A stretch of 57,406 bases of DNA, filler included, from Squatina squatina (Eukaryota): the NCBI GenBank assembly GCA_031763465.1. It is 4 parts of 4 records of this genome, joined end to end, with 100 filler letters (N's around TTAATTAATTAA, not from the genome) between each part and the next. Parts side by side here need not be neighbours in the genome. Positions count along the whole stretch, not along the records: positions 1 to 17,490 come from JARFOE010000073.1; 3 more parts are not named here. One strand, given 5' to 3'. Both the position numbers and the translations under genes were made by a program. Under the pieces are notes generated by a model that saw only the letters and a program-made list of their open reading frames with translations, made no database searches and had not been told where the DNA came from. Positions 1,386 to 45,103 of this stretch are shown here, piece by piece (positions within the stretch are counted from its first letter, which is position 1; every line of letters begins with the position of its first letter).

Positions 1386-3368
1386 GTACATCCTTGATGC
1401 AGCTGCCCACCTCAGATGTTAGAGACCAAAACAAATCAGTAAAAAGAACTAGCAATTCCACGGTGGTGTGCTTCACAGCGAGTTGGAGGTGATGATATGA
1501 CAAGGGAGGTGTTGGGGATTGAGAGTAGGGGAATGAGAATGAGTGACTTCTGATAAAAATGGAAATAAGTTTGACAGCTACAGATATAGTGAGCTAAGTA
1601 CTTAGAATTAAAATAGTGNNNNNNNNNNNNNNNNNNNNNNNNNNNNNNNNNNNNNNNNNNNNNNNNNNNNNNNNNNNNNNNNNNNNNNNNNNNNNNNNNN
1701 NNNNNNNNNNNNNNNNNNCTGCCCACTGGCAGGCTGAGGCTTCCCCGAAGCGATTTCCGACCAGGCCTCGAAATGGGCAGCCCAGCACTTGGGCCCAGAA
1801 CAGACGGGAGCTTATTAAAATATTTAAATTCAGATCCTATGCTGGTTGTGGCACTCCGCCGCAATTTTCGTATTTGGCCACTGAATAGCCTAACCAGCAG
1901 TCCTTAAGGTATCCACGACAGGCTATTCCATTAAACTGACTTTAGTGGGGGTCAGGAGGAGCATGAATGCTGATGCTGGCTCCTATTGTTCTCTCTCCTT
2001 CCCCGGGATTGCCACTTCACCTACTTTGAGCGATGACTTCTAGTTTGACTCGGCCTCTCGCTATCATCATTGGGTAGGTGGTGCGATTGCTCCACCCAGC
2101 ACCCACACAATGTGTGCTATATCTGAAAAATCGGTCCGAACAATCTTTGAGGTGTTAAAATAAATTGTAATTTGTTATGAGTAATTAAGAAGGGATTTGA
2201 GGTGATGGGGCCACTTTTTGGGAGGGGTGCTGGTAGAGAGGCATCAGAGAAGCTTAGTTCTGTGCTCCCGATTCAGTATAAAGAGTTTTTTCACATCTTG
2301 ATACAAATGGGTCAGTTGCTTAAGGCCTCATTAGTCAGTAACTAGCAGTGTCTGGCTCAAGTAAACATATACTTTAGCCACACACAAGATGGAATTCCAG
2401 ATCCATTAAGTTCCCATTAAGGTATTTTCTGATAACTGATGTAATCAAAACCCTGATCCACAGAATATTCCAAAAGCTGCCTCACTGCTTATAGAAATGG
2501 AGTTCNNNNNNNNNNNNNNNNNNNNNNNNNNNNNNNNNNNNNNNNNNNNNNNNNNNNNNNNNNNNNNNNNNNNNNNNNNNNNNNNNNNNNNNNNNNNNNN
2601 NNNNNAATGGAAAATGCAGCAACAGAGGGAAACAATAATGAAGGGGGCAATAATGTAAGATGCAGTAATGGAGGGAGGCAATGACAGAGGGAGCAGTAAT
2701 GGAAAGGGGTAGTAATTTTGGCATTGATGATGGAGGGAGCAATATTGAAAGGAAGCAGTAGCTGAGGGACAGTGACATAAGGAGGCAGAACTGTGTGCAA
2801 TGCATGCTTTCATTATCCTTGTGTTATGTGATGTGATATTAAACAACTTGAAGAGACGGGAGAAAATTGTAAGGCAGTGACAGAGTTAATCCTTATGCAC
2901 AATTTTTAAAAGCTTCCTGACATGTAATGAGCTCGTAGGAACTACTCTGTAATACCAAAAACAGTTGGGCTGCACCTCTGTAAGAATGCCAAGTGGGGCT
3001 GCTACAAGCTCTTTCATGTCTCCACAGTAATGAAATGTCTCATTGCTGCAAACCAACTCTGCACTATACAATTTTAAATGCTAATATTTTTTCAAATTAT
3101 AAATGAAGTTTTCAAAAGTTTGCGTATTGGCACACAATCTGTGAAATCATTGTGCATTTTGATCACAAGGTGCTTGTGGAAGAATACTTTGGTATATTGC
3201 ATTACATAGTGTGGCTGTGCTTGCTCTGGGAGTGATGCATTTGTAAGAGTTAAAAGAATTTGTTTAGTCTTGGTCCTCTGGTTTCTATTGAGCTGTGGGG
3301 AGAAGGTCTTGCCTACATCAATTAATGGCTCGGGTGTTTGGGTCATTTTTCCTGCTTGGCCTTAGGTG

Positions 3369-3810
3369 TGTCGCTGCCCCAGGCAGGATACATTTGGGCC
3401 ACTGCCCCAGGCAGGATACACTTGGGTCACTGCCCCAGGCAGGATACATTTGGGTCACTGCCCCAGGCAGGATACAGTTGAGTCACTGCCCCAGGCAGGA
3501 TACATTTGGGTCACTGCCCCANNNNNNNNNNNNNNNNNNNNNNNNNNNNNNNNNNNNNNNNNNNNNNNNNNNNNNNNNNNNNNNNNNNNNNNNNNNNNNN
3601 NNNNNNNNNNNNNNNNNNNNNGCGGGATACATTTGGGTCACTGCCCCAGGCAGGATACATTTGGGTCACTGCCCCAGGCGGGATACATTTGGGTCACTGC
3701 CCCAGGCAGGATACATTTGGGTCACTGCCCCAGGCAGGATATATTTGGGTCGCTGCCCCAGGCAGGATACATTTGGGTCACTGCCCCAGGCGGGATACAT
3801 TTGGGTCGCT
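3369..3810. repeat. 28-bp tandem minisatellite (cactgccccaggcaggatacatttgggt), spanning a gap
   Basis: About 12 near-identical units visible on both sides of the 100-N gap. Confidence 0.95.
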
Positions 3811-4714
3811 ATCCTGGCCTGGCTTCAAGGGAGTTTCTGCCCCGACCAGACTACAGTTAGGTGCCTGTCATGGTTAATTTGAGGCACTGGGAGTTGGGGT
3901 GAGTGCTGACACTCCCTCTGTGAGGTCTAAGGTGTCGTGCTGCTGGTATGAAGTAATGTGCTGGGTTTTCTGATTCTTGTCCGGAATATTCAGAGATGTC
4001 AACCGTGGCAGTTTGTATACCAAGAGGCTGTGAGTGTTCAGAGTGGGGCCAAGTCCTGGGGCCACACAAGGCTTTGTACTGGAGCTACCTGCCAAAACCA
4101 CAGCCCGTCTGTACAAATACACTCTGAGCTCTCATAAGATTTGAAATGAAATTTGGAATCGTTGCCTATGCTTTTAGTGATCTCCAGACCCAGTGAGGAT
4201 GAGAGAGATCAAAGTTTTATTGAAATGAGAGATTAAAGTTTATTTTCTTTATTAAAAAGGAAAATGGTAACTAGTTGGTGGAAAGAGCAATGGAGCGGAG
4301 AGTTTTCAGAAACCAATGTCTTGGTGAGAGATCCACTCTCATAGTTTATGCTGCTTTGAATCCCAGTGAGATTCTTTTACGATAGTCACTCGCACACTTG
4401 CATTAAACTAGAACACCCTCACATTATTGCATTATTAAAACAAAATGATCTCTGTGAATGAGAATGACATGCTGGCCATCCTATGATTCAGACAGTACCT
4501 CTAAGATTTTGGTTATGATATTTTTTGGCTTCTTCTTTAATCTCATTTTTCTAATTCTGGCATCACACATTTTCACATCCACCATTTTATCAAGTTTCTT
4601 GATTGCTTAAGAACACTTTTTTTGTTTGCTCCTCCACCATCCCACAAAAAAAAATTGTCCAGTTAGAATAATTGTTCTTAGGATGTGGGTTTATTGATTG
4701 CCCACAGATTACAA

Positions 4715-5470: not shown

Positions 5471-7511
5471 GTAACCATGGCAGCTATCAGCTGTGTTTGT
5501 GATAATGTAACTGTAGTGCTTGGTTTTGGCTTCACCCTAGATAGGAGGGTGGGGAGAGAGGACATTTTTTTGTGTGAGGCATAGTTTCATTGGTTTTCAT
5601 AAAAGCCTGTTTAGGAGGGGCCGTATATTGGGGTGCAGGACTGCTTTTGTCTGAGGCACACGGGTTTTGAATCTAGCCCAGATTTAGCAGTATTACTGAC
5701 CTACTGTTCTTAAATAAAGCAATAAGTATCGCTTTTCTTTCTATTCGGCTGCAGCCAATGATAATTTTTGAAAAAGTGAATTATTTTTTCCCTGCTCTTC
5801 TTGAATCAGAGTTTTAAATTCCTATTAGCTCCGTGACTCATTTAGAAAGGCCAAGACCAGCCTATGAATTCAATATTAAAATCCACCATATTTAATTCCC
5901 ACATAGGAGCCTGGAACAAGGGTAAAGGGGGACAATAAATCAATCCCTGTACTTCATAACCCACAATAAAGCAAAATAAGACATAATTAAACAGTATTAA
6001 CATTAGTCTATTAGCAACCCACACAAGTTTCATGAAACAAGGCTTATGGCATCAAGGACAATGAAGGATGATTTTTACACCCACTTGTATGATAAACCAT
6101 TACTCGCTTGTCACTTTTTGTCGTCAGCCTACTATTTGGTGAAGTTCTGCTAGTTTTGTGATATGACCACAGCAGGAAAAGAATACTGGCAGTTTGAGAA
6201 GAGATTCAAAAGTAAACATCTATATGTTTGTTTTGAGCAATGGTGATCACCTGGCCTCCTATAACACTGGCAATTTATTTTCCAAAAGTGGTCATGTGAC
6301 CTTTCAACTCTTCATGTTGCTTTTAAGCAATTTCATTGGCCAATAGCGATCACTTAGTTATTGTATTCATGTCATTTTTCTAGTAATCTTATTGCCAGTG
6401 ACTAACCTTACTGATATTTGACTGAGAAAGATCTGGGCCCATGCTAGTAAAGCCATGCCAAGGTTGAGACTAGAATCCTGTGGGTTTTTGCTTATTTTTG
6501 GTAACAATGCAATTGTTTCCATGGTAGCCATTGGTTATTGTTTTTGATCACTGTGATTGTTCCGTTGGAACATTTTCACTGAAGAATCTCATCTTTTCTT
6601 TGGACCTAATGCTCATTACTCCCTGGTAGCCATATTACTATGACATTCAATGATAAATTAACGTCACATAGTAACTTGCCTTCAAAAATATGTTGCCGAA
6701 GTCATAAATGGAAAGTAATTTGGAAGGAGGGTGTTCAACAATTTCATCCGATTTATTATAACGGCTGATCAGTCTCTGGTAACCATGTGACCGTTGCTGT
6801 GGTAATGCTGCTCATTGTTTCTTGAGCATTTCTATTACAAAATTAATAGCGTAGAAGCAACAGAATAGCAGGGAAGATAAACAGTTTTTTAAAAAAGGCA
6901 TGGGATCAACATCCCTTGAGATCAATTAGTTGCAATACGGTGGCCCTGAAATTGAGATCTTCCCGGGTGGGAACAATGTTCCCACGCACCCGGGGAGACA
7001 TCGCAAAAGCTGGTTATGGGGCTGTACATCATAACTTCTGGACAGATCCAATGCTGAGGCTGCGAAGCCCATCCCTNNNNNNNNNNNNNNNNNNNNNNNN
7101 NNNNNNNNNNNNNNNNNNNNNNNNNNNNNNNNNNNNNNNNNNNNNNNNNNNNNNNNNNNNNNNNNNNNNNNNNNNNTGTTGATCATGGAACTCTGTTTAA
7201 ATGCTATTTAATGCTCTGTTCGTTGCTCAGATTTCTCTGCTCAGTGCTTTACTCCTGGCAGAGAGGGCAGTTGCGTCCAGTCAGAAGCATGTGTGAGAGG
7301 CCGAGAATGGCTTCATTTTATGTTCCTTTCGATGCTTGTCCTCAATTGTTTTCTTGGCTTTTTTTTGAGCACATTTACCCACCTCTCTCTTGTTCCCCAC
7401 CATTTGCACATTTCCTGTATGCAGTATCTCCCTCTTTCTTGTTTCTTTACTCTTTGATGAGTACTTTCAGACACAGTGTCAGTCGCTGTAAAGGTTTCCA
7501 TTGTTTTTCAG

Positions 7512-7631
7512 GAAACCCACCCTCATGCCTGAACATGCACTGTGACCAAAGCTGTGCTCTGATTGGAGGGGTGCCTGTTTGCAGCTGCTATGGTGGTTAC
7601 TCTTTGGGGAAGGATGGGAAGACCTGCTATG
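7512..7631 (+). CDS. VWCE-like gene exon, EGF domain (NPPSCLNMHCDQSCALIGGVPVCSCYGGYSLGKDGKTCY)
   Basis: tttttcag| acceptor, G|gtaagg donor, 120 nt, phase 1-1, six-Cys EGF spacing. Confidence 0.85.
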
Positions 7632-7855
7632 GTAAGGCTGATGGGTGCCTATCAACATTGAGTAGAATCAACTTCGATAGACTTTATAGGGCACAGTGTA
7701 CTCTCCTTTTGAATTAGCAATCAAATGCCTGCATCACGAATGGCCTGGTTTGCCCCTGTGCAGATGTTCTTTGCTGGAGTGCCCAGGTTCTGCAGAAGCA
7801 TCGTCAGTACTTGCTTGCACTGTGTAGCCCATTTCACCTGAAGCCAGTTGCCCAT

Positions 7856-8046
7856 TTTTATTTCTCTTTCAAGGACCCAATTAAGAATTCACTCTTGGAT
7901 AAAGGCCTTCCCAGTGGCATTTCTGCTTTTGTCTCTGGGAGTTTCAATGGAATGATGGTGTGTTTCATTTTATACCCCCTCAGTGCAGTGATTGCAAATG
8001 TGCAATCTCACATTGGAGAAGAGAAAATGAGCCTTCGGAATTTCAT
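7856..8046 (+). pseudogene. SLC25A53-like mitochondrial carrier fragment, truncated at the 5' end and running into a gap
   Basis: FYFSFKDPIKNSLLDKGLPSGISAFVSGSFNGMMVCFILYPLSAVIANVQSHIG resembles SLC25A53 LYFSFKDPIQDGLAEQGLP...VSGSVNG...LYPLIVLVANMQSHIG. Similarity stops abruptly upstream. Confidence 0.65.
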
Positions 8047-8146
8047 NNNNNNNNNNNNNNNNNNNNNNNNNNNNNNNNNNNNNNNNNNNNNNNNNNNNNN
8101 NNNNNNNNNNNNNNNNNNNNNNNNNNNNNNNNNNNNNNNNNNNNNN

Positions 8147-8731
8147 GCAACATCAGGATGCAGTTGAGTGTGGCATTGTACTCACATTTCCTGACCTCAT
8201 GTGATCACTAAATCTCTTCTGGCATTGAATCCAGGAGCGGTTGACAACACCCCTGCTACTCACTTCTTGGGCAATCTCCAGCCATGCACTCATGGTTTCT
8301 CTGGCTGCTCTTTTCCTGCCTTGCCAGGGAATAGTACCTCCCTGCATGCTCCGCCTCCCTGGACCAGGAGTTGAGTTAAAGTTGAATGCGCAGTGCAGAA
8401 CTCGCTGTTGAAAACTTCAGGATGGTGACCCACTACGTGGCCCGCACACACCCACCCCGACTCTAAGGTAAACATTCTGACCATACTGGTTCAGACTCTG
8501 CGCTGCTCATTAACGATTCTTCAATCTGATTGGTCGAGGAGACACACAGTTGCTTGCCCTGTTCACACAGGTTCTGCAGAGGGCACCGTGCCATTTCTAT
8601 CTCCATCTCCCACTTACAGCAACTTGCCATGCAAAAGCTCAAGGGTATTAAACGGGCACGGGCAAGTCTAATGAAAGGCAGGCGCCATTTGTTTGGCGCC
8701 GTTTGCTCGCTGCCTACAGTAAATTCTGGCC
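8147..8731 (-). mobile_element. Decayed PIF/Harbinger-type element with a frameshifted Myb/SANT-like ORF
   Basis: Two frames give LLVQG..CREVLFP and GRKRAARETMSAWLEIAQEVSSRGVVNRSWIQCQKRFSD, the W..IA..V...RSWxQCxKRF Myb/SANT signature. The terminus gtaaattctggcc resembles the TIRs of other elements here. Confidence 0.7.
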
Positions 8732-9574
8732 AAATAAATTAGCATTCAGGAAACAAATTGACTCTGTAAGAAAGTGGGGTACCGCTCCCTCTGCAAAATA
8801 GCGTTAACCCCTTAAGATTGGGGATTGTGATGTCTTTTTCATGAGGGCCATCAACAAGCACACTAACCCTTCTGTGTAACGGCACTGAGTTATGCTTTAA
8901 ATGAAAGATATATTTCCTCTCTATTGCTCAGCACAAAACTCAAAATTCACACCCAAAACCCTGTGCACAATGAACAGTTTTCAATATTTATCATTATTTA
9001 ATGACTTAATTATAACGATGTACACAAAGAATTAGAGCACAACCTGAAAGCAGAGTAAAGCATTGACAAATTCCACTCAGCTCCAGAATCTCACTTCACA
9101 CTGGATAAGTCAGTGTGTAATACAAGCAAGCTTAAGAGGATATAAAAGAGGTAGTTTCCCAACCTCAAGCTTCTGTCGGGCAGCATAACCTGGCAATAGT
9201 GCACACCAGAAGTTATGGTGCAATTTGCAAATGATTTTTGGGCCATAAATTTAAATGGTTAGAAAATAATTCACAGTGCATTTACACATTTCCGATTTGC
9301 TTTCCTGCCAAGCAAGGCTCCCCAAGGATAGTACAGTAATAAAAGTCAATGTAAAATTTGTACCCTTCACAAGTCTAAATCAGAAATCACAATTTATCTA
9401 AATGCATTTTTAACGAATTTCTTATGAGGACACTTTGTTATAAAGCATGAAACTATTTTAATTTTGAGGCCCAGATTTCAGTGACACAAGAATGCACAAT
9501 TTTTCATGCTGTCACCACATCGTGTTGAAGTAAATATATTGAAATCTGTTACATTCATAATGCATATAATGATC

Positions 9575-9750
9575 TTAAGTGTCTTTTGAATGAGGTAGTT
9601 GCGACAATCTTCTCCCTAAATTCAATAGCTCCGTCCTCACAGCAAATTCCATGTCTGTAACAAACAGCAGCAAATTGTCCAGACAGTACTGAAGATATTC
9701 AAAAGCCAACACCTTCATCACATCATCAATTTCAGGCATTCTCTTTGAAT
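9575..9750 (-). CDS. Terminal coding exon of an unidentified antisense gene (NSKRMPEIDDVMKVLAFEYLQYCLDNLLLFVTDMEFAVRTELLNLGRRLSQLPHSKDT*)
   Basis: tgttgcttacacag| acceptor, phase 1, 58 open codons ending in TAA. Joins the 10156-10213 exon in frame. Confidence 0.6.
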
Positions 9751-10155
9751 CTGTGTAAGCAACACTCGAGGAGCAAAGGACCAGTGTCTATCTGTTAAAA
9801 ATTGGAGGCAAATTGCTAAGCTGTCCTTCTGTGGTCTTTATGGCCACACCCTACTATATTGATAGAGAATCCGAATAGACATGTTTAATAAAGTGAGTCA
9901 CCATTCAAGTACAATTACCTCTAAGTGATTAGTACACCTCACTGACAAGAGCTAAGGATTATATCATTCGAAAATACAGCAGTGAGGATCAATGACATAC
10001 AGCACCCCAGTAACATATATGCAGAGCAAATACCAATATAAGCATCATGATTGTAACGGATAGCATAAATAGGACTTTCAGTGGGTAAATAATGTCTGCA
10101 TCTTCCTCCCAATCTAAGAAATGCTGACTGCCTTTCTTCAAGGACAAGCACTCAC

Positions 10156-10213
10156 TCGCAGCCAACTCAAACATTCCATAATAAGCCTTGTTTCCACTTT
10201 GTGGCGCTGCATA
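10156..10213 (-). CDS. Penultimate exon of the same antisense gene (YAAPQSGNKAYYGMFELAA)
   Basis: tgtttcttttcag| acceptor and A|gtgagt donor, 58 nt, phase 0 to 1. Confidence 0.6.
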
Positions 10214-11138
10214 CTGAAAAGAAACATTGCAGTCAACATGACATACAATGCTCCTACTTTATCTAATTTTGAAATAATTTGTCTTTACACNNNNNNNNNN
10301 NNNNNNNNNNNNNNNNNNNNNNNNNNNNNNNNNNNNNNNNNNNNNNNNNNNNNNNNNNNNNNNNNNNNNNNNNNNNNNNNNNNNNNNNNNNNNNNNNNNN
10401 NNNNNNNNNNNNNNNNNNNNNNNNNNNNNNNNNNNNNNNNNNNNNNNNNNNNNNNNNNNNNNNNNNNNNNNNNNNNNNNNNNNNNNNNNNNNNNNNNNNN
10501 NNNNNNNNNNNNNNNNNNNNNNNNNNNNNNNNNNNNNNNNNNNNNNNNNNNNNNNNNNNNNNNNNNNNNNNNNNNAATTAACAGTTATTCCTTATGTTTA
10601 CCCCTAAAATGAAATGGAGAATGTGTAAGTGTATTAATTTTAAAAATATGTCCTCCCTCATCTACATCATTTAGTGCCCCAGGGGAAAAAATTGGAACAT
10701 TCTTGTTGGGTCTTTGTCGATTACATTCTTGCGCTTATCCCTCATCGGCATGGGCTATGGTGGCTCGATTTGCCCTCGAACTCTTTTCTCTCTCCTGTCG
10801 GGAAAATTATGACTTTCATGTTTTGCCTTCTTTGTGACTTTCCTGAAACCAATGCTCATTGTGGAAACTGTAGACTTAGGCATCCTATAATTCTGTGGTG
10901 CACCACACAATGGAAAAAAAATGTTTTAAAAGCATTTGCTGTGCCAACCAACTTGTTTTGAAAGGCGGTGATGTTTTCTTGTTCTAATTAATAAAATAGT
11001 CACAAAATTTACTATTTATAGTACACAAAGTCTGCGGTATTTGGATCTGTGCACAAGCTATGAATTTGCAGTGGCCTAATCCAAAAATGCTTGGCTGTGA
11101 CTCATGACAACTGCCCTCCTTTTTTGTGTTACTTGTAG

Positions 11139-11291
11139 ATGTGGATGAATGTTCCCGATATGGAGGGCAAAGCCTTTGCCAGCAAATCTGCAAGAATAAC
11201 ATTGGCAGCTACAGATGCCTCTGTTATCAAGGATACCAGCTCTTAGCCAATGGGCGCACCTGCATTACTTCAAAATATTTAGGCCTTACTG
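11139..11291 (+). CDS. VWCE-like gene exon, calcium-binding EGF (DVDECSRYGGQSLCQQICKNNIGSYRCLCYQGYQLLANGRTC)
   Basis: acttgtag| acceptor, G|gtgagt donor, 153 nt, phase 1-1. DVDEC and CxNxxGSYxC consensus. Confidence 0.9.
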
Positions 11292-11434
11292 GTGAGTAAC
11301 AGCTTGTTAATGACAATAACATTTCTTCAGCATCTTTAACATAAAAGTGCTTCACAGAAGCGTAATCAAAAAATGGATGTTGAGTCAAAGAAAGAGAGGT
11401 TCAGAGAGTTACCAAAAGCTTAGTCAAAAGAGAT

Positions 11435-11696
11435 GGGGCACCCAATTGGCACTCCGGCACTCGTGTTAAATGGGCGGAGAAAAGGTGTTAGGGGTCTAAT
11501 GCCCGTTTCTGGTGCTAAATTGATATTTGCGCAATTGGCCGCAGTTTAGCGCCGGTGCTAAATGGGCGCTAATGTGGGAGCGCTAGAAATGTGGCGCTAG
11601 GCGCTAAACGGCCTCCGTGACGTCATCAGAGGACGCACTGCCCAAAATGGCCACCCGACAAAGAATTGCACTCAATTCTTTGGGCGCTAAACGGGC
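11435..11696. mobile_element. GC-rich non-autonomous DNA element with repeated (t)agcgcc/ggcgcta motifs, left part
   Basis: Starts ggggcacccaattg. The reverse complement caattgggcgcc ends a similar element at ~25565. Confidence 0.55.
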
Positions 11697-12023
11697 NNNN
11701 NNNNNNNNNNNNNNNNNNNNNNNNNNNNNNNNNNNNNNNNNNNNNNNNNNNNNNNNNNNNNNNNNNNNNNNNNNNNNNNNNNNNNNNNNNNNNNNNAGAT
11801 TAGAATGGGCACCTAGTTCTTTAAAGTCACGTGTAAGTCAAACAAACAGCTAACACCTCTTGCTCCACCTGTAGTCCTGCCATGTTTAAGTACTCCAGCT
11901 CTGTTTCATGATGCTATGTTTATCAGCTCGTTTGTTCAAAAATAATCCAATAAGGTCCATACAGATTAGCGGCAGGAAAATTGTCAATCTACAATCTGAT
12001 ACTGATTTATTGTTGTGTTGCAG

Positions 12024-12146
12024 ATCTCGATGAGTGTGCAGGAAACAGGTCCCCTTGCCAACAGAGGTGTCAGAATGTGGTGGGCAGCTTTAAATGTTCG
12101 TGTCGGCCCGGCTTCTACCTCCACAACAATGGGCATTCATGCACAG
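12024..12146 (+). CDS. VWCE-like gene exon, calcium-binding EGF ([41 protein letters not shown])
   Basis: tgtgttgcag| acceptor, CAG|gtagga donor, 123 nt, phase 1-1. Resembles VWCE [38 protein letters not shown]. Confidence 0.9.
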
Positions 12147-12439
12147 GTAGGAACACCCAGTCATTTCTAACTTGGTGGTTTTGTTGTTGTCGTTCCCAAC
12201 CATCGGATCAGTAATTTAGTTTTTCATAACCACTGTCCCTGAAATATATTTTGATTATTTTATTACATTTACTGTAAAAAAAAATGTTACCCAATTATCA
12301 TCTTCCTTGCTTGAAGGCAATGACTGTCGCTAGGGTACATTTGCACTGGTAGGGACAAGTGCCCATTCATCATATTGGTCTACTGTAGAGTCTAATTTGT
12401 CTGATTAGAATACATTTTGGGGATGTTGGTTGATGGAGA

Positions 12440-12686
12440 ACAAGTTGCTCCCAGTGCAACAAACCCACTACCAATGCAACAAGCTCACGCCCAGTGCAAG
12501 ACACTGCTTCCGGTGCAACAAGCTCACTCCCAGTGCAAGACACTGCTTCGGGTGCAACAGGCTCACTCCGGTGCAAGACACTGCTTCGGGTGCAACAAGC
12601 TCACTTCCAGTGCAACAAGCTTACTCCCGGTGCAAGACACTGCTTCTGGTGCAACAGGCTCACTCCGGTGCAAGACACTGCTTCCA
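12440..12686. repeat. ~39-bp tandem repeat made of two related 19-20 bp subunits (gtgcaagacactgcttc / gtgcaacaagctcactcc)
   Basis: cagtgcaag recurs at 12492 and 12531. The array runs into a gap. Confidence 0.9.
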
Positions 12687-15600: not shown

Positions 15601-16108
15601 GCATAAGCTGTTTGGAGTCACTTTCTTGGTGCCATGTGGACAGCAGGGTTCCTTAAAAGTGCAATGCAAGTACTGAACTGAGTGTCTCTTAGCTGTAGGT
15701 GTCCTTGCAGCAGATGGCACAGCCTCACATGTAGCTATCTGACACCTGGAGCATGTGTATCCAGTTCCATGTGGTCACTGTCATATTGTGCACCTCTGCC
15801 TATAAATGTCGGTGATGGAAACTTTCTCTTCTCGGCTCTTTTCTCTTTGGTTATGCATCTTCCTCAGGAGGTTGAACAAATCGGGGAGAGTCCACGCTCC
15901 AGCAGGCTGTTCAGGGTCTGCGGAGGGATCTGACTCCATGAGCCTATGCTTTTATAGTTTATGTTCTTCCATCCAGGTACTTCAACCAACTGTCAGTCCT
16001 TGTTACAGCACAAAACTTTCTAGAGTTGTAGCAATCACAATGCAATTAAATGAAAGTATTATGCTCTGTGGATAGATTCTTACTAAGTTGTAATGTGTTA
16101 TTCTCCAG

Positions 16109-16275
16109 AATACTCGGTCGCCTCAGCTCCAGTAATGGAATCTCTCAAGCAGCCTTTGCCAGCTGCGATCTTTGCCACTCCCTGGATGCCACCAACATCC
16201 TGCTGGTACAATGAGACCTTGCAACAGGACGGTGCCACCTGGACAGTGTCTGAGTGCGTCGAATGCACTTGCCGG
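16109..16275 (+). CDS. VWCE-like gene exon, Pro-rich linker plus N-terminal half of a VWC domain (SCWYNETLQQDGATWTVSECVECTCR)
   Basis: ttctccag| acceptor, CGG|gtgagg donor, phase 1 to 0. C...G..W....CxxCxC VWC pattern. Confidence 0.8.
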
Positions 16276-16309: not shown

Positions 16310-16707
16310 TTTCTGAAGGGCAGCTCAGCGGAGGACTACCCATTGTGAAGGATAGCTTGGCTGGGGATCACCCATTGTGTTTGATTCCTGAAGGATTGAT
16401 TCCTGAAGGATGGCTTGGCTGGTGACCACCCATTGTGTTCGATTCCTGAAGGATATCTTGGCTGGGGACCACCCATTGTGATTGATTCCTGAAGGATCGA
16501 TTCCTGAAGGATAGCTTGGCTGGGGAACACCCATTGTGATTGATTCCTGAAGGATCGATTCCTGAAGGATAGCTTGGCTGGGGAACACCCATTGTGATCG
16601 ATTCCTGAAGGATCGATTCCTGAAGGATAGCTTGGCTGGGGAACACCCATTGTGATCGATTCCTGAAGGATAGCTTGGCTGGGGAACACCCATTGTGATC
16701 GATTCCT
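16310..16707. repeat. Compound minisatellite, 43-bp unit plus an optional 15-bp internal duplication (58-bp period)
   Basis: gattcctgaaggatagcttggctggggaacacccattgtgatc units. ttcctgaaggatagc recurs at 16501 and 16559. Confidence 0.95.
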
Positions 16708-17119
16708 GCTCAGCTGGGGACTATCCTGTCTTGAGACCTCCATATACCTATTAATAATTATTTGGGTTACTTAAATATATTGCACAAAGACCTTTTTCTT
16801 TTAACATAAATAAATTCCTCGTTGAGGAGCTTAGAGAAAAAAAGAAACAGAAGTGAAGGAACAGTGAAGAAACATTCTACAGTATATTCTACATGCCTGT
16901 CACATAAACTATATCCTACCTGCTGTTCCCTGCCACCATTATCCATGTGGTGTGATGTTTGAAGCAATTCTATAGTATAACATGGATGATGTGTCAGCCC
17001 TCCTGTGGTGCTCCTCGTGGTGAACGACTGGAGTGCTATACTTGATAATAAGTAGTATATTATTATATAAATGTAATAGAGTTCATGGGTGATTGGGGAT
17101 ACGAATCAGGGAGGAGAGT

Positions 17120-23080: not shown

Positions 23081-23477
23081 AAGCCTTTCTTCAGGTGTAA
23101 ACCTAGCCAATGAGCATTGGCAAGCTATTCAACTGTGCAGAAAATTACAGCTGAGACTAATTCTGAAAACACTAGTCTTCACATGCATATTTCAATCAGA
23201 CTAATTTTCTCCCTCCCTAGCTAAGGGATGCTGAGGCTGGCCGCAGTGCTCATTCACGAACCGTACTCAGATCAGACAGCTCAGCCCACTTATCCCTTCT
23301 TGTCTGTATGGCTCAGTACCACTGCATTATATTTAGCAACTGAGTCATCAGACGAGCGGCAACCTGAAAGTTTTAAAGGCTGTTTTCAAATAATGATCCT
23401 GACTCCTACAACGTGTCAGACAGCAGCCTGAGACTCTGAGACTGGAAAACAGCAACAAAAAAAGTAAGCAGCAGCAA

Positions 23478-23616
23478 ATGGACTGGGAAAAGAAAGTACT
23501 TCAACAAAGACAGAGAAAGAAAGTCAAAGGTAAAATTGAGAGAAGTTTATACCAGAAACCTGAGAAAGAAAATCCTAGAGCAAGAGAGATGAAAAGAAAG
23601 AAAGCAGTTATAGATG
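23478..23616 (+). CDS. Candidate first coding exon with a basic, charged peptide (MDWEKKVLQQRQRKKVKG...KKAVID)
   Basis: caaATGG start context, 46 open codons, G|gtatgt donor. No homolog recognised. Confidence 0.35.
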
Positions 23617-25324
23617 GTATGTATTTGGTATATAACTTACTCTTCTTAGATTTTCTTTTGTTATTCTATATAGTTTGCTGTGTACATATGCTTTAAATAA
23701 AATACTTTTGCAGTTTAATTGTTTCCATGCAGTTCATGGATTCTGCGATGAGATTTCAATGATATACCTCTACAGGAAAATGCAAACCACCGATAAGTAA
23801 AAGACAAGCTCTGTAAGGTACAAGGCAAGTCTGTTGATGATACGGGGTAGTAACTTTTCCAAATGAAAATATTTGTGAACTTTACAAATTATTGGTGACA
23901 GCCTCATGTACCTCCAGCCGTGGAAGTTAAGGATGGGATTTATTACCCAACTTTGGAAATTCTATTAAAATAATATGGCAATATGATAGTTGATTTTAGT
24001 CATTTGTTTAGAAAAATGCAGGGCATTATTTATTGCATTAAAATAACTGCTTCTGTCTTTAAATAAAATGTAATATGATATTTTCTATTAAAACTCGTCC
24101 TACCTTACTTTTTAAATTCAATTTGCTTCAAAGACATTTCTACATTCAGTCTCAATAGGTTTAACCCGGACTTCAGATTAGTTTAGAAACTCCCTGTGGC
24201 TGCATTTGACGGATGTCTCAAATTTGCTTTGAACATCTGGATCCAGCAATATGATTTACAAACGCTAGTGACACTATTCTTTGACTTCATTTCATTTTCA
24301 GTTTTAGTTTTTATTTTAAAGAGGCTACTTTTCTGATTTTCATTGCAGGGGCATTTTTATGAATTTTGTAGAAAAGTGTGTCCATTTTAATACAAGGCAT
24401 TCATTGTGTCTCTTCACACTCTGCACACAGGCTGAGAGTTTAGGACTGGCAGTGTATGGGTCACTGGTTTACGTGTTCACAGGAAGTACTGAAGAACCCG
24501 CCGCCTTGATTACTCACATGGGAATAGGGGCGTTCTTTCAAAAATGAAATTATATCAAATGATACACTCATTTTAACTATTTTATTTTCATTACACATTG
24601 AGCAAGAATACATAATGGAGAAATGCATACCAAGTTTGTTTTAAAGAAATGATGTTTGTGATTTCTTGCCCGGCAGGAGTGCACATTCGGAAATCACAAA
24701 AAAATTATGTTCTGTCCTTTTAGCTGGGACTGAGCACTTGTAAACTCTCTGTTGTAGATAACAAAGGTAGTAATGATGTCTTGAGTTATGAGATCTTGCT
24801 CACTCATCGAATAAATTGGGCTTGTAAAACATGGAGCAGCATTTACTGTCGTCAACCGTGCATCCTCTCACAGCAGGTAAGCCCCACACTAAACGCACAA
24901 AGGAAGTTCCTGTACCAGAATGTACAATATTTGCTCTCAGCAGGTGAGTTTCTCCGCTAAGGTCGTGAAGTCAGGAAATTACCCCATGGTCTTTTTCTCT
25001 TCTTTTGCTTTCAGTTTTTATGCCCTACTCCTCAAGCTATAGCTTATGCTGAAGTAGAGTTCCGTGGGCGAAGGCAGCTTCAGGTATCTTGCCCAAGTGG
25101 CCGTTGTTTATACGTGACTCTGGTCAGTAAGTGTTTGTCTATTATTCATAGTATATATATATTTTTTTAAATAAACGTTCAAATTAGAGTGATAGAGCAG
25201 TATACCCCCTGGATATTTCTCAGGNNNNNNNNNNNNNNNNNNNNNNNNNNNNNNNNNNNNNNNNNNNNNNNNNNNNNNNNNNNNNNNNNNNNNNNNNNNN
25301 NNNNNNNNNNNNNNNNNNNNNNNN

Positions 25325-35450: not shown

Positions 35451-35639
35451 TTACAGTTCTGTGTCCGCTTCCTCTACTGTCTTCCTCTGGTGGCCGTTTC
35501 CTGCTGCCGCAGCTCGCTGGTTCTCGCCGTTCTCCTGGGCTTCCCCGTTCAGTTTTGGCTTCTCATGTGCATCTGATTGGTCCTCTGAAGCGACAGAAAA
35601 TATTGTGCTATCATGATCCTGTGCATCGGGCTCCTCATC
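35451..35639 (-). CDS. CD34: CD34 terminal exon, cytoplasmic tail (DEEPDAQDHD...KPKLNGEAQENGENQRAAAAGNGHQRKTVEEADTEL*)
   Basis: ctttctcttttaag| acceptor, phase 0, 63 codons. AQENG, NGH and C-terminal ADTEL match CD34, whereas podocalyxin and endoglycan end in DTHL. Absent from the ORF track. Confidence 0.85.
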   Translation of the reverse strand, partial: DEEPDAQDHDSTIFSVASEDQSDAHEKPKLNGEAQENGENQRAAAAGNGHQRKTVEEADTEL

Positions 35640-36819
35640 CTTAAAAGAGAAAGGACAAACTGAATTGGTTGCCAGTGCACTCCTGCTGAGTGAAGGATGT
35701 CTGGAACTGGCTGCTCTGTGTTGCTAAGCTGCGGATAACNNNNNNNNNNNNNNNNNNNNNNNNNNNNNNNNNNNNNNNNNNNNNNNNNNNNNNNNNNNNN
35801 NNNNNNNNNNNNNNNNNNNNNNNNNNNNNNNNNNNNNNNCAAGTTGCTTACATGTTACGGGTCTTGACAATGACAGTAGATATGATGCAGATTTCCTACT
35901 TCACTTTACTCAAATAGGAAAGAGAAATTAACTCAAATGTTACTCCTCAGATGTGGATAGACCTGTGCAACTAAACATATCGTTAAATTAAATAGTGTTG
36001 CGTTCTAGTAAGGGTCATGAGTTCATTGGCAGTGATTTTATACCACTTTATAAGAAAAATTCGTTGTCTACTTTTTGAACATAGCTTCAAGACTACCACA
36101 CAATTGTATCGTTGCAAGATATCAGCCAAGCACATCTTAGCAGTCGCATATCAAAAGGCTACAACCCAAATAGGTGAGAGATCTCTCAACAAATACTATA
36201 CTTCATATATTGCCTCTTTTAAAGTCGTTTCTTCTCCATTCCATCTGTTGTTTATTGGTAACCATCCACCACCAGAAAAACAAAATCAGCAACCTATTTG
36301 AACCCATGGTCATTACGCATACCAGGCAGTCAGCACAGCTGCCAAGAGAAAATTCTTGGCACTGAGGATTAATGCACATGAAAAATCTACTTAATTTATA
36401 AACCAAAAATGGTTGAAGCGTCGCTGGGAAAACTACAAGGAATAATAACCAGTCATACCTTAAACTGCTAATGGAAAATGAACTCTTTCAGGGAAAATAA
36501 TGAGAAGCCCAGCAAACAGGATATGATCTGAATATCTTAACCCACATAAATATTTTTACACAGTGGAAATACTTGTCACCCTGAGTATTTCCTTTACCGT
36601 ACTTGAAGCTTGACAAACTTCGAACTAGTTTGCCAAGAGGTTTTCTGCTTGGGTCAGGATTAATTATCTTTGGGTGATTATCGTTGCAGAACAATGCTCA
36701 ATTCACAATAGTTGCACCTCAGCTTATTGAGCTGTTCCTTCTGTAAATCAGTCTGAATTAATAGTCAGATTGCCTCTCCGTAACAAGAATAAATAAAAAT
36801 GACCTTTTGCAGTTAGGAT

Positions 36820-44687: not shown

Positions 44688-44759
44688 GGATCTGTCAAAC
44701 AACAGGATTGGATGTCTGAGTCCTGAGATATTTGTGGGCCTCACCAGTTTGTCTAAACT
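44688..44759 (+). CDS. ADGRA-family adhesion GPCR (GPR123/124/125 group), 72-nt LRR exon (DLSNNRIGCLSPEIFVGLTSLSKL)
   Basis: ttccttttatag| acceptor, CT|gtaagt donor, phase 2-2. LDL(S/T)NNRIGCL is characteristic of the ADGRA2/ADGRA3 LRRs. Confidence 0.85.
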
Positions 44760-45103
44760 GTAAGTACATAACCTTTCATTGCTTTTAGTTACCTAATTAA
44801 GATTTTTTAAAATAATATTTAGACAAAAGGGAAAGTTACAAGACAACAGAATATCAAAGCAATTAGGCCATCTTAACCCAGAACCCGGCCAGTTTGCTTT
44901 TCATACATTTGTTCTTAGGTGACGCGAGCAAGACTGCATTTAAATCCCGTGCCCTGAAACAATTGTTTTTTTTTGTACAAATGCTAGGTCACTTGAGAGG
45001 GCANNNNNNNNNNNNNNNNNNNNNNNNNNNNNNNNNNNNNNNNNNNNNNNNNNNNNNNNNNNNNNNNNNNNNNNNNNNNNNNNNNNNNNNNNNNNNNNNN
45101 NNN

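Follow-up and report, generated by a model that had tools for sequence, protein, structure and literature searches.

Two putative antisense exons with a prohormone-like layout nested in an intron of a kielin/chordin-like gene in Squatina squatina

Introduction

Does an intron of a shark gene of the kielin/chordin-like type harbor a small protein-coding gene on the opposite strand and, if so, what might that gene make? The question arose from an initial annotation of 57,406 nucleotides of Squatina squatina DNA (assembly GCA_031763465.1; four joined pieces of the genome, hereafter the window), in which two minus-strand exons between two plus-strand EGF exons were read as the C-terminus of a gene of no assignable family. 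The set of amidated helical peptide hormones known from vertebrates is considered almost complete. Peptide-hormone genes can nevertheless stay hidden, as the accessible text of one report describes for zebrafish secretin, which was unannotated and missed by homology search (PMC12714231).

Results

The host gene and its intron

The assembly of the window is fragmentary, with 40 N-gaps that are mostly 100-N placeholders, and it carries only five exons of a host protein of ~1,700 residues. When host exon 16102-16275 was used as a query against a collection of 5.8 billion proteins, nine proteins were found among 11 candidates, and all nine are shark or ray proteins named "kielin/chordin-like" or "VWCE-like" (the best from Pristiophorus, 95%), which bears out the VWCE-like host proposed at the outset. 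On this likeness, the host belongs among the shark kielin/chordin-like (VWCE-like) genes. Two of its exons frame the locus:

7512..7631, plus strand: host EGF exon preceding the intron, covering about aa 120-159 of the host protein
11139..11291, plus strand: host EGF exon following the intron, covering aa 160-211 of the host protein

These two exons are consecutive in 14 of 16 shark/ray host proteins, the remaining two lacking both, and 7632-11138 is therefore a single host intron (GT...AG).

Contigs from four of nine listed public sequencing runs (three studies; organisms A, A, B, and C) were aligned to 7400-12300 at 80% likeness. In all four runs, the 285-N gap that had been proposed to link the nested exons to the exon at 11139 is crossed by one contig, with 293 letters between 10290 and 10580, that continues through this exon. 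The same contig spans about 8610 to about 11400 in three of the four runs and contains both nested exons whole together with host exon 11139; in the fourth, a contig joins exon 11139, exon A, and most of exon B (defined below). On the left, exon 7512 is separated from contig 8147-10290 by a 100-N gap, and none of the contigs listed for the four runs bridges it (stretch 7875-8600). The nesting follows from the right-hand bridge together with the order of the host exons, and the position between the two EGF exons is real in the relatives. Contig depth over the nested exons (9-18) resembles that of the host exon in all four runs, against thousands at 8056-8711, indicating that exons A and B are not a repeat at 80% identity or above. 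In three other organisms, at ~90% identity, the exon region is present as a single collinear copy, and no second copy of the nested exons occurs within the window.

Several further features of the window were noted. Contig 7177-8046 probably contains a chimeric join at 7857-8046 (+): this stretch lies on another record than the host-exon piece in all four runs (4-5 of 190 letters differ), and in three runs the host-exon piece spans 7400-7875, overlapping it by 19 bases. Its translation resembles the mitochondrial carrier SLC25A53, a likeness that found no confirmation in Pfam or PDB, and the stretch could be an assembly artefact or a recent insertion. A terminal exon of the CD34/podocalyxin family (Pfam PF06365, E 1.9e-08; C-terminal Asp-Thr-Glu-Leu) lies at 35451-35642 (-), and other exons of that gene were not recognised in the window. 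Ig and FN3 exons at 179-371 and 1086-about 1410 (+) presumably resemble IGSF22, and a leucine-rich-repeat exon at 44688-44760 (+) presumably resembles ADGRA2/ADGRA3. Because the scaffold looks like a sparse mosaic (CD34-like, IGSF22-like, just five host exons), its long-range gene order is unreliable. A Lys/Gln-rich frame of 97 codons at 23403-23696 (+) is possibly an exon of another gene; its composition score is protein-like (9.3), and none of its matches in Pfam fell below E 0.06. High-copy repeats were recognised by contig depth at 8056-8790 and 11336-11499, and tandem minisatellite-like arrays occur elsewhere (repeat regions 11336-11696, 3366-3860, 12405-12686, and 16325-16720); a search for significant repeats within 8147-11696 found none, and Rfam gave no match in the window.

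The putative nested exons

The proposed gene comprises the following parts:

10156..10213, minus strand: exon A, 58 nt, phase 0 to 1, with AG before and GTGAGT after; predicted pro-region
9751..10155, minus strand: intron of the nested gene, 405 nt, GT-AG
9575..9750, minus strand: coding part of exon B, likely the last exon, following CAG; 57 full codons and TAA (9577-9575)
8971..9574, minus strand: putative 3′ UTR, with ATTAAA at 9462 and 9002 and five ATTTA
10291..10575, no strand: unread gap of 285 N, about 289 letters in relatives; nearest site where a signal-peptide exon might lie
11013..11020, minus strand: possible promoter element TATAAATA, a weak TATA match (46 such matches in 52 kb, both strands)

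Sequence and translation confirm that exons A and B join in phase 1 (A+AT = Asn) to give an open frame of 77 residues. Exon A is also open in a second frame, which closes after 10 codons of exon B when joined and yields only 29 residues. Splice sites were scored with an approximate vertebrate matrix, and the tables used for composition scoring are approximations likewise; on this scale, the acceptor and donor of exon A score 6.9 and 7.7 and the acceptor of exon B scores 6.6. Four correctly located host exons score 4.4-8.8 (acceptors) and 9.0-10.6 (donors), so that the nested acceptors fall inside the host range and the exon A donor lies somewhat under it. Exon A ranks 20th among the minus-strand exon candidates listed. 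The splice sites, initially described as strong, are good and not exceptional.

A weaker donor inside exon B (9640, score 5.7) could, if used, make exon B internal and splice out a Gly-Arg-Arg motif near its end. The ATTAAA at 9002-8997 (minus) reported earlier is present and, with a GT-rich stretch ~30 nt downstream, is a plausible polyadenylation site; the other ATTAAA lies at 9462. No further convincing minus-strand exon of the nested gene was found among the candidates examined in the window. Nine of the 57 exon B residues are acidic, and G leads at the first codon position (24/77) in DNA of ~40% GC.

Structure and composition compared with chance

Chance expectation was estimated from 26,192 dinucleotide shuffles of the 2,144-base contig 8147-10290 on both strands, with thresholds chosen after seeing the case. 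A two-exon terminal structure at relaxed splice thresholds arose in 11,242 shuffles (43%), and one with the observed splice scores and lengths in 592. A composition as protein-like as the observed one accompanied the structure in 33 shuffles at relaxed thresholds and in none at the observed thresholds. The relaxed structure coincided with a prohormone motif (defined below) in 48 shuffles, and structure, composition, and motif were never combined (0/26,192).

The real window holds 61 distinct last-exon acceptors at relaxed thresholds, and real DNA yields more two-exon structures than the shuffles do. Among 13 strict structures in the window, composition scores of at least 5 belong only to exons A/B and two variants of a real Ig-FN3 pair; the other 10 score 0.5 or less. 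We consider it quite probable that exons A and B are, or once were, coding exons.

Prohormone-like layout of exon B

In translation, exon B has a Ser, then Lys-Arg, and then a stretch of 41 residues that starts with Met-Pro, ends with Asn-Leu, and contains no dibasic pair; Gly-Arg-Arg, a tail of 10 residues, and a stop follow. Three elements can be delimited:

9740..9745, minus strand: Lys-Arg in translation, predicted prohormone-convertase site
9617..9739, minus strand: predicted mature peptide of 41 residues, Met-Pro start, Leu end, one Cys, ~4.87 kDa
9608..9616, minus strand: Gly-Arg-Arg in translation, predicted cleavage and amidation signal

Both marks sought in a precursor are thus present, namely, a dibasic site before the candidate peptide and Gly plus a dibasic site after it. 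The motif, noticed after the fact, was formulated as a dibasic pair, 20-50 residues without a dibasic pair, and Gly plus a dibasic pair; permuting exon B 200,000 times produced it in 85 cases, and it was present in 420 of 200,000 random vertebrate-like 57-mers (about 0.2%) and in one of the 240 ORF tails of the window, which is exon B's own. Chance instances are found in the window as well, one in the real Ig-FN3 exon pair and one in a low-scoring, non-coding-looking structure at 31 kb.

AlphaFold, run on the single sequence, predicts one helix over residues 5-50 of 57 (pLDDT 90.5), covering the candidate peptide (residues 4-44). The earlier description of a helical-looking C-terminus agrees with this model and was incomplete, having overlooked the succession of Lys-Arg, 41 residues, and Gly-Arg-Arg. 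Helices modelled from single sequences lack specificity. The candidate peptide has a net charge of -6, a GRAVY of 0.57 (hydrophobic), and a lone Cys, and its overall amphipathy is not significant (permutation p 0.38). A hydrophobic, acidic, lone-Cys, non-amphipathic peptide is atypical of class B ligands.

Exon A opens with Tyr-Ala-Ala-Pro-Gln, which in sequence terms is a possible signal-peptidase site, that is, the end of a signal peptide. No signal-peptide-like exon was found in the assembled sequence from 10214 to 29 kb, and the five candidates of the ATG-hydrophobic-donor type all lie beyond 29 kb. In the accessible text of Foster et al. (PMC6838683), 66-80% of the human peptide ligands released by cleavage are stated to have dibasic flanks with a C-terminal Gly, and 99% of known precursors a signal peptide; one-Cys candidates were dropped from their library against dimerisation. 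As the dibasic and Gly-plus-dibasic layout is the usual mark of peptide-ligand precursors, it suggests that exons A and B belong to the precursor of a secreted peptide.

Homology searches

Exon B served as the query in the large collections, and exon A was searched in Pfam and in the host proteins. Against the 5.8 billion proteins, exon B matched none of 17 candidates of 101-2000 aa at E<=0.001, and no candidate arose at 31-100 aa; proteins above 2000 aa were covered by a search of 1.84 billion representatives of any length. That search gave one match, P0003, a tandem-repeat ORF that matches residues 36-57 six times and was rejected as summed chance matches. Pfam returned no family for queries of 57, 46, and 41 residues, nor for exon A. 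The only match among PDB sequences was a designed protein (E 0.56-0.76), which was likewise set aside, and the ESM Atlas gave no usable match for exon B. ESM recognition scores are low (1374, 1197) and do not decide between coding and non-coding. None of 596 pattern matches in metagenome contigs and none of 68 in viral contigs was confirmed by tblastn. Assignment to no family, as first stated, holds throughout Pfam, PDB, both protein collections, and the ESM Atlas; the Foldseek check suggested with it gave no match, a result that is uninformative for a lone helix. Since the collection includes annotated shark proteins, as the host-exon control demonstrates, the nested product is apparently not annotated as a protein in the species that the control recovered.

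Other identities were tried and rejected. An alternative host exon was discarded, the 16 host proteins having no blastp match to exon A or B and a best tblastn in 7640-11130 of E 4, and so was a transposon or viral relic, given the single-copy-like depth of 9-18 and no tblastn-confirmed locus in viral or metagenome contigs. Likenesses to IL-12A, G-CSF, IL-11, leptin, type I interferon, and the MHC class I alpha-2 helix, and to galanin message-associated peptide, egg-laying hormone, and NPGL/FAM237, were dropped for want of profile support. The openly accessible literature that was searched contains nothing on the locus or the peptide and no nested gene for a kielin/VWCE-like host.

Divergence from a relative

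Divergence from organism A (run X1) was counted as substitution totals per contig piece, with host-exon shares estimated for two pieces. Host exon 7512-7631 differs at four of 120 letters; for the flanking intron, the count is about 97 of 716 (13.5%). The piece 9606-10290, with both nested exons and their intron, differs at 74 of 685 (10.8%), not visibly below its neighbours: 65 of 839 (7.7%) for the putative 3′ UTR piece 8761-9599, and about 64 of 659 (9.7%) for 10580-11391 minus the host exon. Depending on whether the flanking intron or the nearer piece is taken as neutral, these coarse per-piece totals give a likelihood ratio for constrained exons of 7.6 or 0.05. Conservation of the UTR piece exceeds that of the flanks (p 0.0002) but not that of the nearer piece (p 0.19).

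In run X1, one contig stops at 9599 and the next begins at 9606, with 29 letters unaligned; in run X2, which carries the same organism label, one contig passes through 9599-9606, and the gap count leaves no indel. The break in X1 could be a small-indel allele in the 10-residue tail or a contig-end effect.

Discussion

A candidate precursor and its alternatives

The observations establish a real, single-copy, nested gene-like feature with a prohormone layout, for which our searches found no relative. We put it at about even chances that exons A and B are the 3′ end of an unannotated precursor that would release the predicted 41-residue amidated helical peptide. A small antisense gene, probably of three or four exons, would encode a secreted precursor of ~100 residues, with a signal-peptide exon that would lie further upstream, either within the unread gap or in a part of the locus absent from the scaffold. 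The initial annotation held that upstream exons must lie in the remainder of the intron or interleave with host exons; the gap is indeed the nearest place, and "must" is too strong, as they may be absent from a scaffold that retains five host exons. Cleavage by prohormone convertases at Lys-Arg and Arg-Arg would be followed by trimming through carboxypeptidase E, and the amidating enzyme would turn Gly into a Leu-amide; these steps are the standard pathway for amidated peptides. By analogy with CRH-sized helical amides, the 41-residue helix might act as a hormone or neuropeptide on a G protein-coupled receptor, most likely of the secretin class (class B).

Several points weigh against the hormone. 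Protein searches returned no relative, whereas annotation in some species would be the more usual case for a hormone under conservation, and no signal-peptide exon was found in the assembled sequence. The motif was noticed after the fact and has chance instances in the window, the divergence of the piece with both exons is not visibly below that of its neighbours, the peptide is unlike typical class B ligands, and splicing at the 9640 donor could remove the amidation signal. It seems to us somewhat less than an even bet that the locus represents an unrecognised vertebrate peptide-hormone family, retained by cartilaginous fishes but, in bony vertebrates, lost or changed beyond recognition, with a secretin-class or orphan receptor. 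If true, a new signalling system would be added by a precursor without a detectable relative; a ready-made synthetic ligand (41 residues, amidated) would be at hand for shark class B and orphan GPCRs; and homology-driven annotation would be shown to miss small intron-nested genes.

The best-surviving alternative, which we nonetheless consider rather unlikely, is that the exons are real coding exons forming the tail or, through the donor at 9640 with its score of 5.7, an inner part of a larger lineage-restricted protein interleaved with the host, the motifs being fortuitous. The exon statistics fit such a protein equally well, many upstream exons could be missing where most host exons are absent from the scaffold (five found), and a real exon pair of the window carries the motif by chance. 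However, the motif is expected in only about 0.2% of random 57-mers, further convincing minus-strand exons were not found, and a larger protein would have had a better chance of annotation in one or more of the nine control shark/ray species, where none appeared at 31-2000 aa or among the representatives.

Less likely still is a non-coding origin, in which frame and motifs would be accidents of intron DNA that evolves slowly or of a spliced long non-coding RNA from the antisense strand. Two-exon structures are common enough for this (43% of shuffles at relaxed thresholds; 61 such last-exon acceptors in the real window), the piece with the exons shows no clearly reduced divergence, no homologue emerged, and the ESM recognition scores are low, though not decisive. 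Yet none of the 26,192 shuffles combines structure, composition, and motif, and the acidic share (9/57) and the excess of G at first codon positions (24/77) despite ~40% GC argue for coding. A decaying relic, left as 3′ exons by a formerly functional gene or by a duplicated fragment that has lost its 5′ part, would account for the 5′ exon not found in the assembled sequence and the annotated product not found in relatives, but is improbable with the frame, both splice junctions, the stop, and the polyadenylation context all intact in a single-copy region that is collinear in three other organisms (~90% identity) and has no second copy in the window.

Comparison with known peptide systems and nested genes

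Should exons A and B encode the predicted amidated peptide, its closest parallels in size are CRH, urocortin, and urotensin-I (Pfam CRF, with the invertebrate relatives DH44 and egg-laying hormone), which it resembles in its 41-residue length, predicted helix, and presumed amidation. The CRH pattern comprises Arg at position 35, hydrophobic residues at 38 and 41, and the N-terminal motifs Ser-x-Asp-Leu and Leu-Leu-Arg; the candidate has the Arg and both hydrophobic residues but neither motif. CRH genes have one coding exon, whereas the candidate has an intron three codons before Lys-Arg and at least two introns in its coding region. According to the accessible text of PMC9353778, the 41-residue amidated helix of CRH is cut from the end of a 160-210-residue precursor with a terminal Gly-Lys, and the chondrichthyan repertoire already includes crh1, crh2, and ucn1. 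The candidate ends instead in Gly-Arg-Arg and a 10-residue tail. Membership in the CRH/urocortin family failed on the Pfam/PDB match, the precursor end, and the exon layout.

In gene plan, the candidate is like other class B GPCR ligands. Calcitonin/CGRP, PTH, and secretin/glucagon have an intron just before the dibasic site, a helical peptide, often a Gly-plus-basic signal, and a short tail, a succession that the candidate shares. These families are marked by a disulfide ring, a His-Ser/Ala-Asp start, or the PTH start motif; the candidate has no N-terminal ring, neither start, and no Pfam match. Spexin/galanin genes contain a 55-58-nt exon of phase 0-1, and the candidate shares with them small exons and Gly-Arg-Arg. 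Chicken SPX2, in the accessible text of PMC10003256, has 75 aa, four exons, and G48-R49-R50, and the mature spexin peptide has 14 residues. Membership in this family was rejected on the length of 41 versus 14 residues, the lack of the family motif, and the absence of a Pfam match.

As for its location, antisense genes nested in host introns are known, for example, TIMP in synapsin, and the candidate is alike in being a small gene for a (predicted) secreted product on the opposite strand inside an intron.
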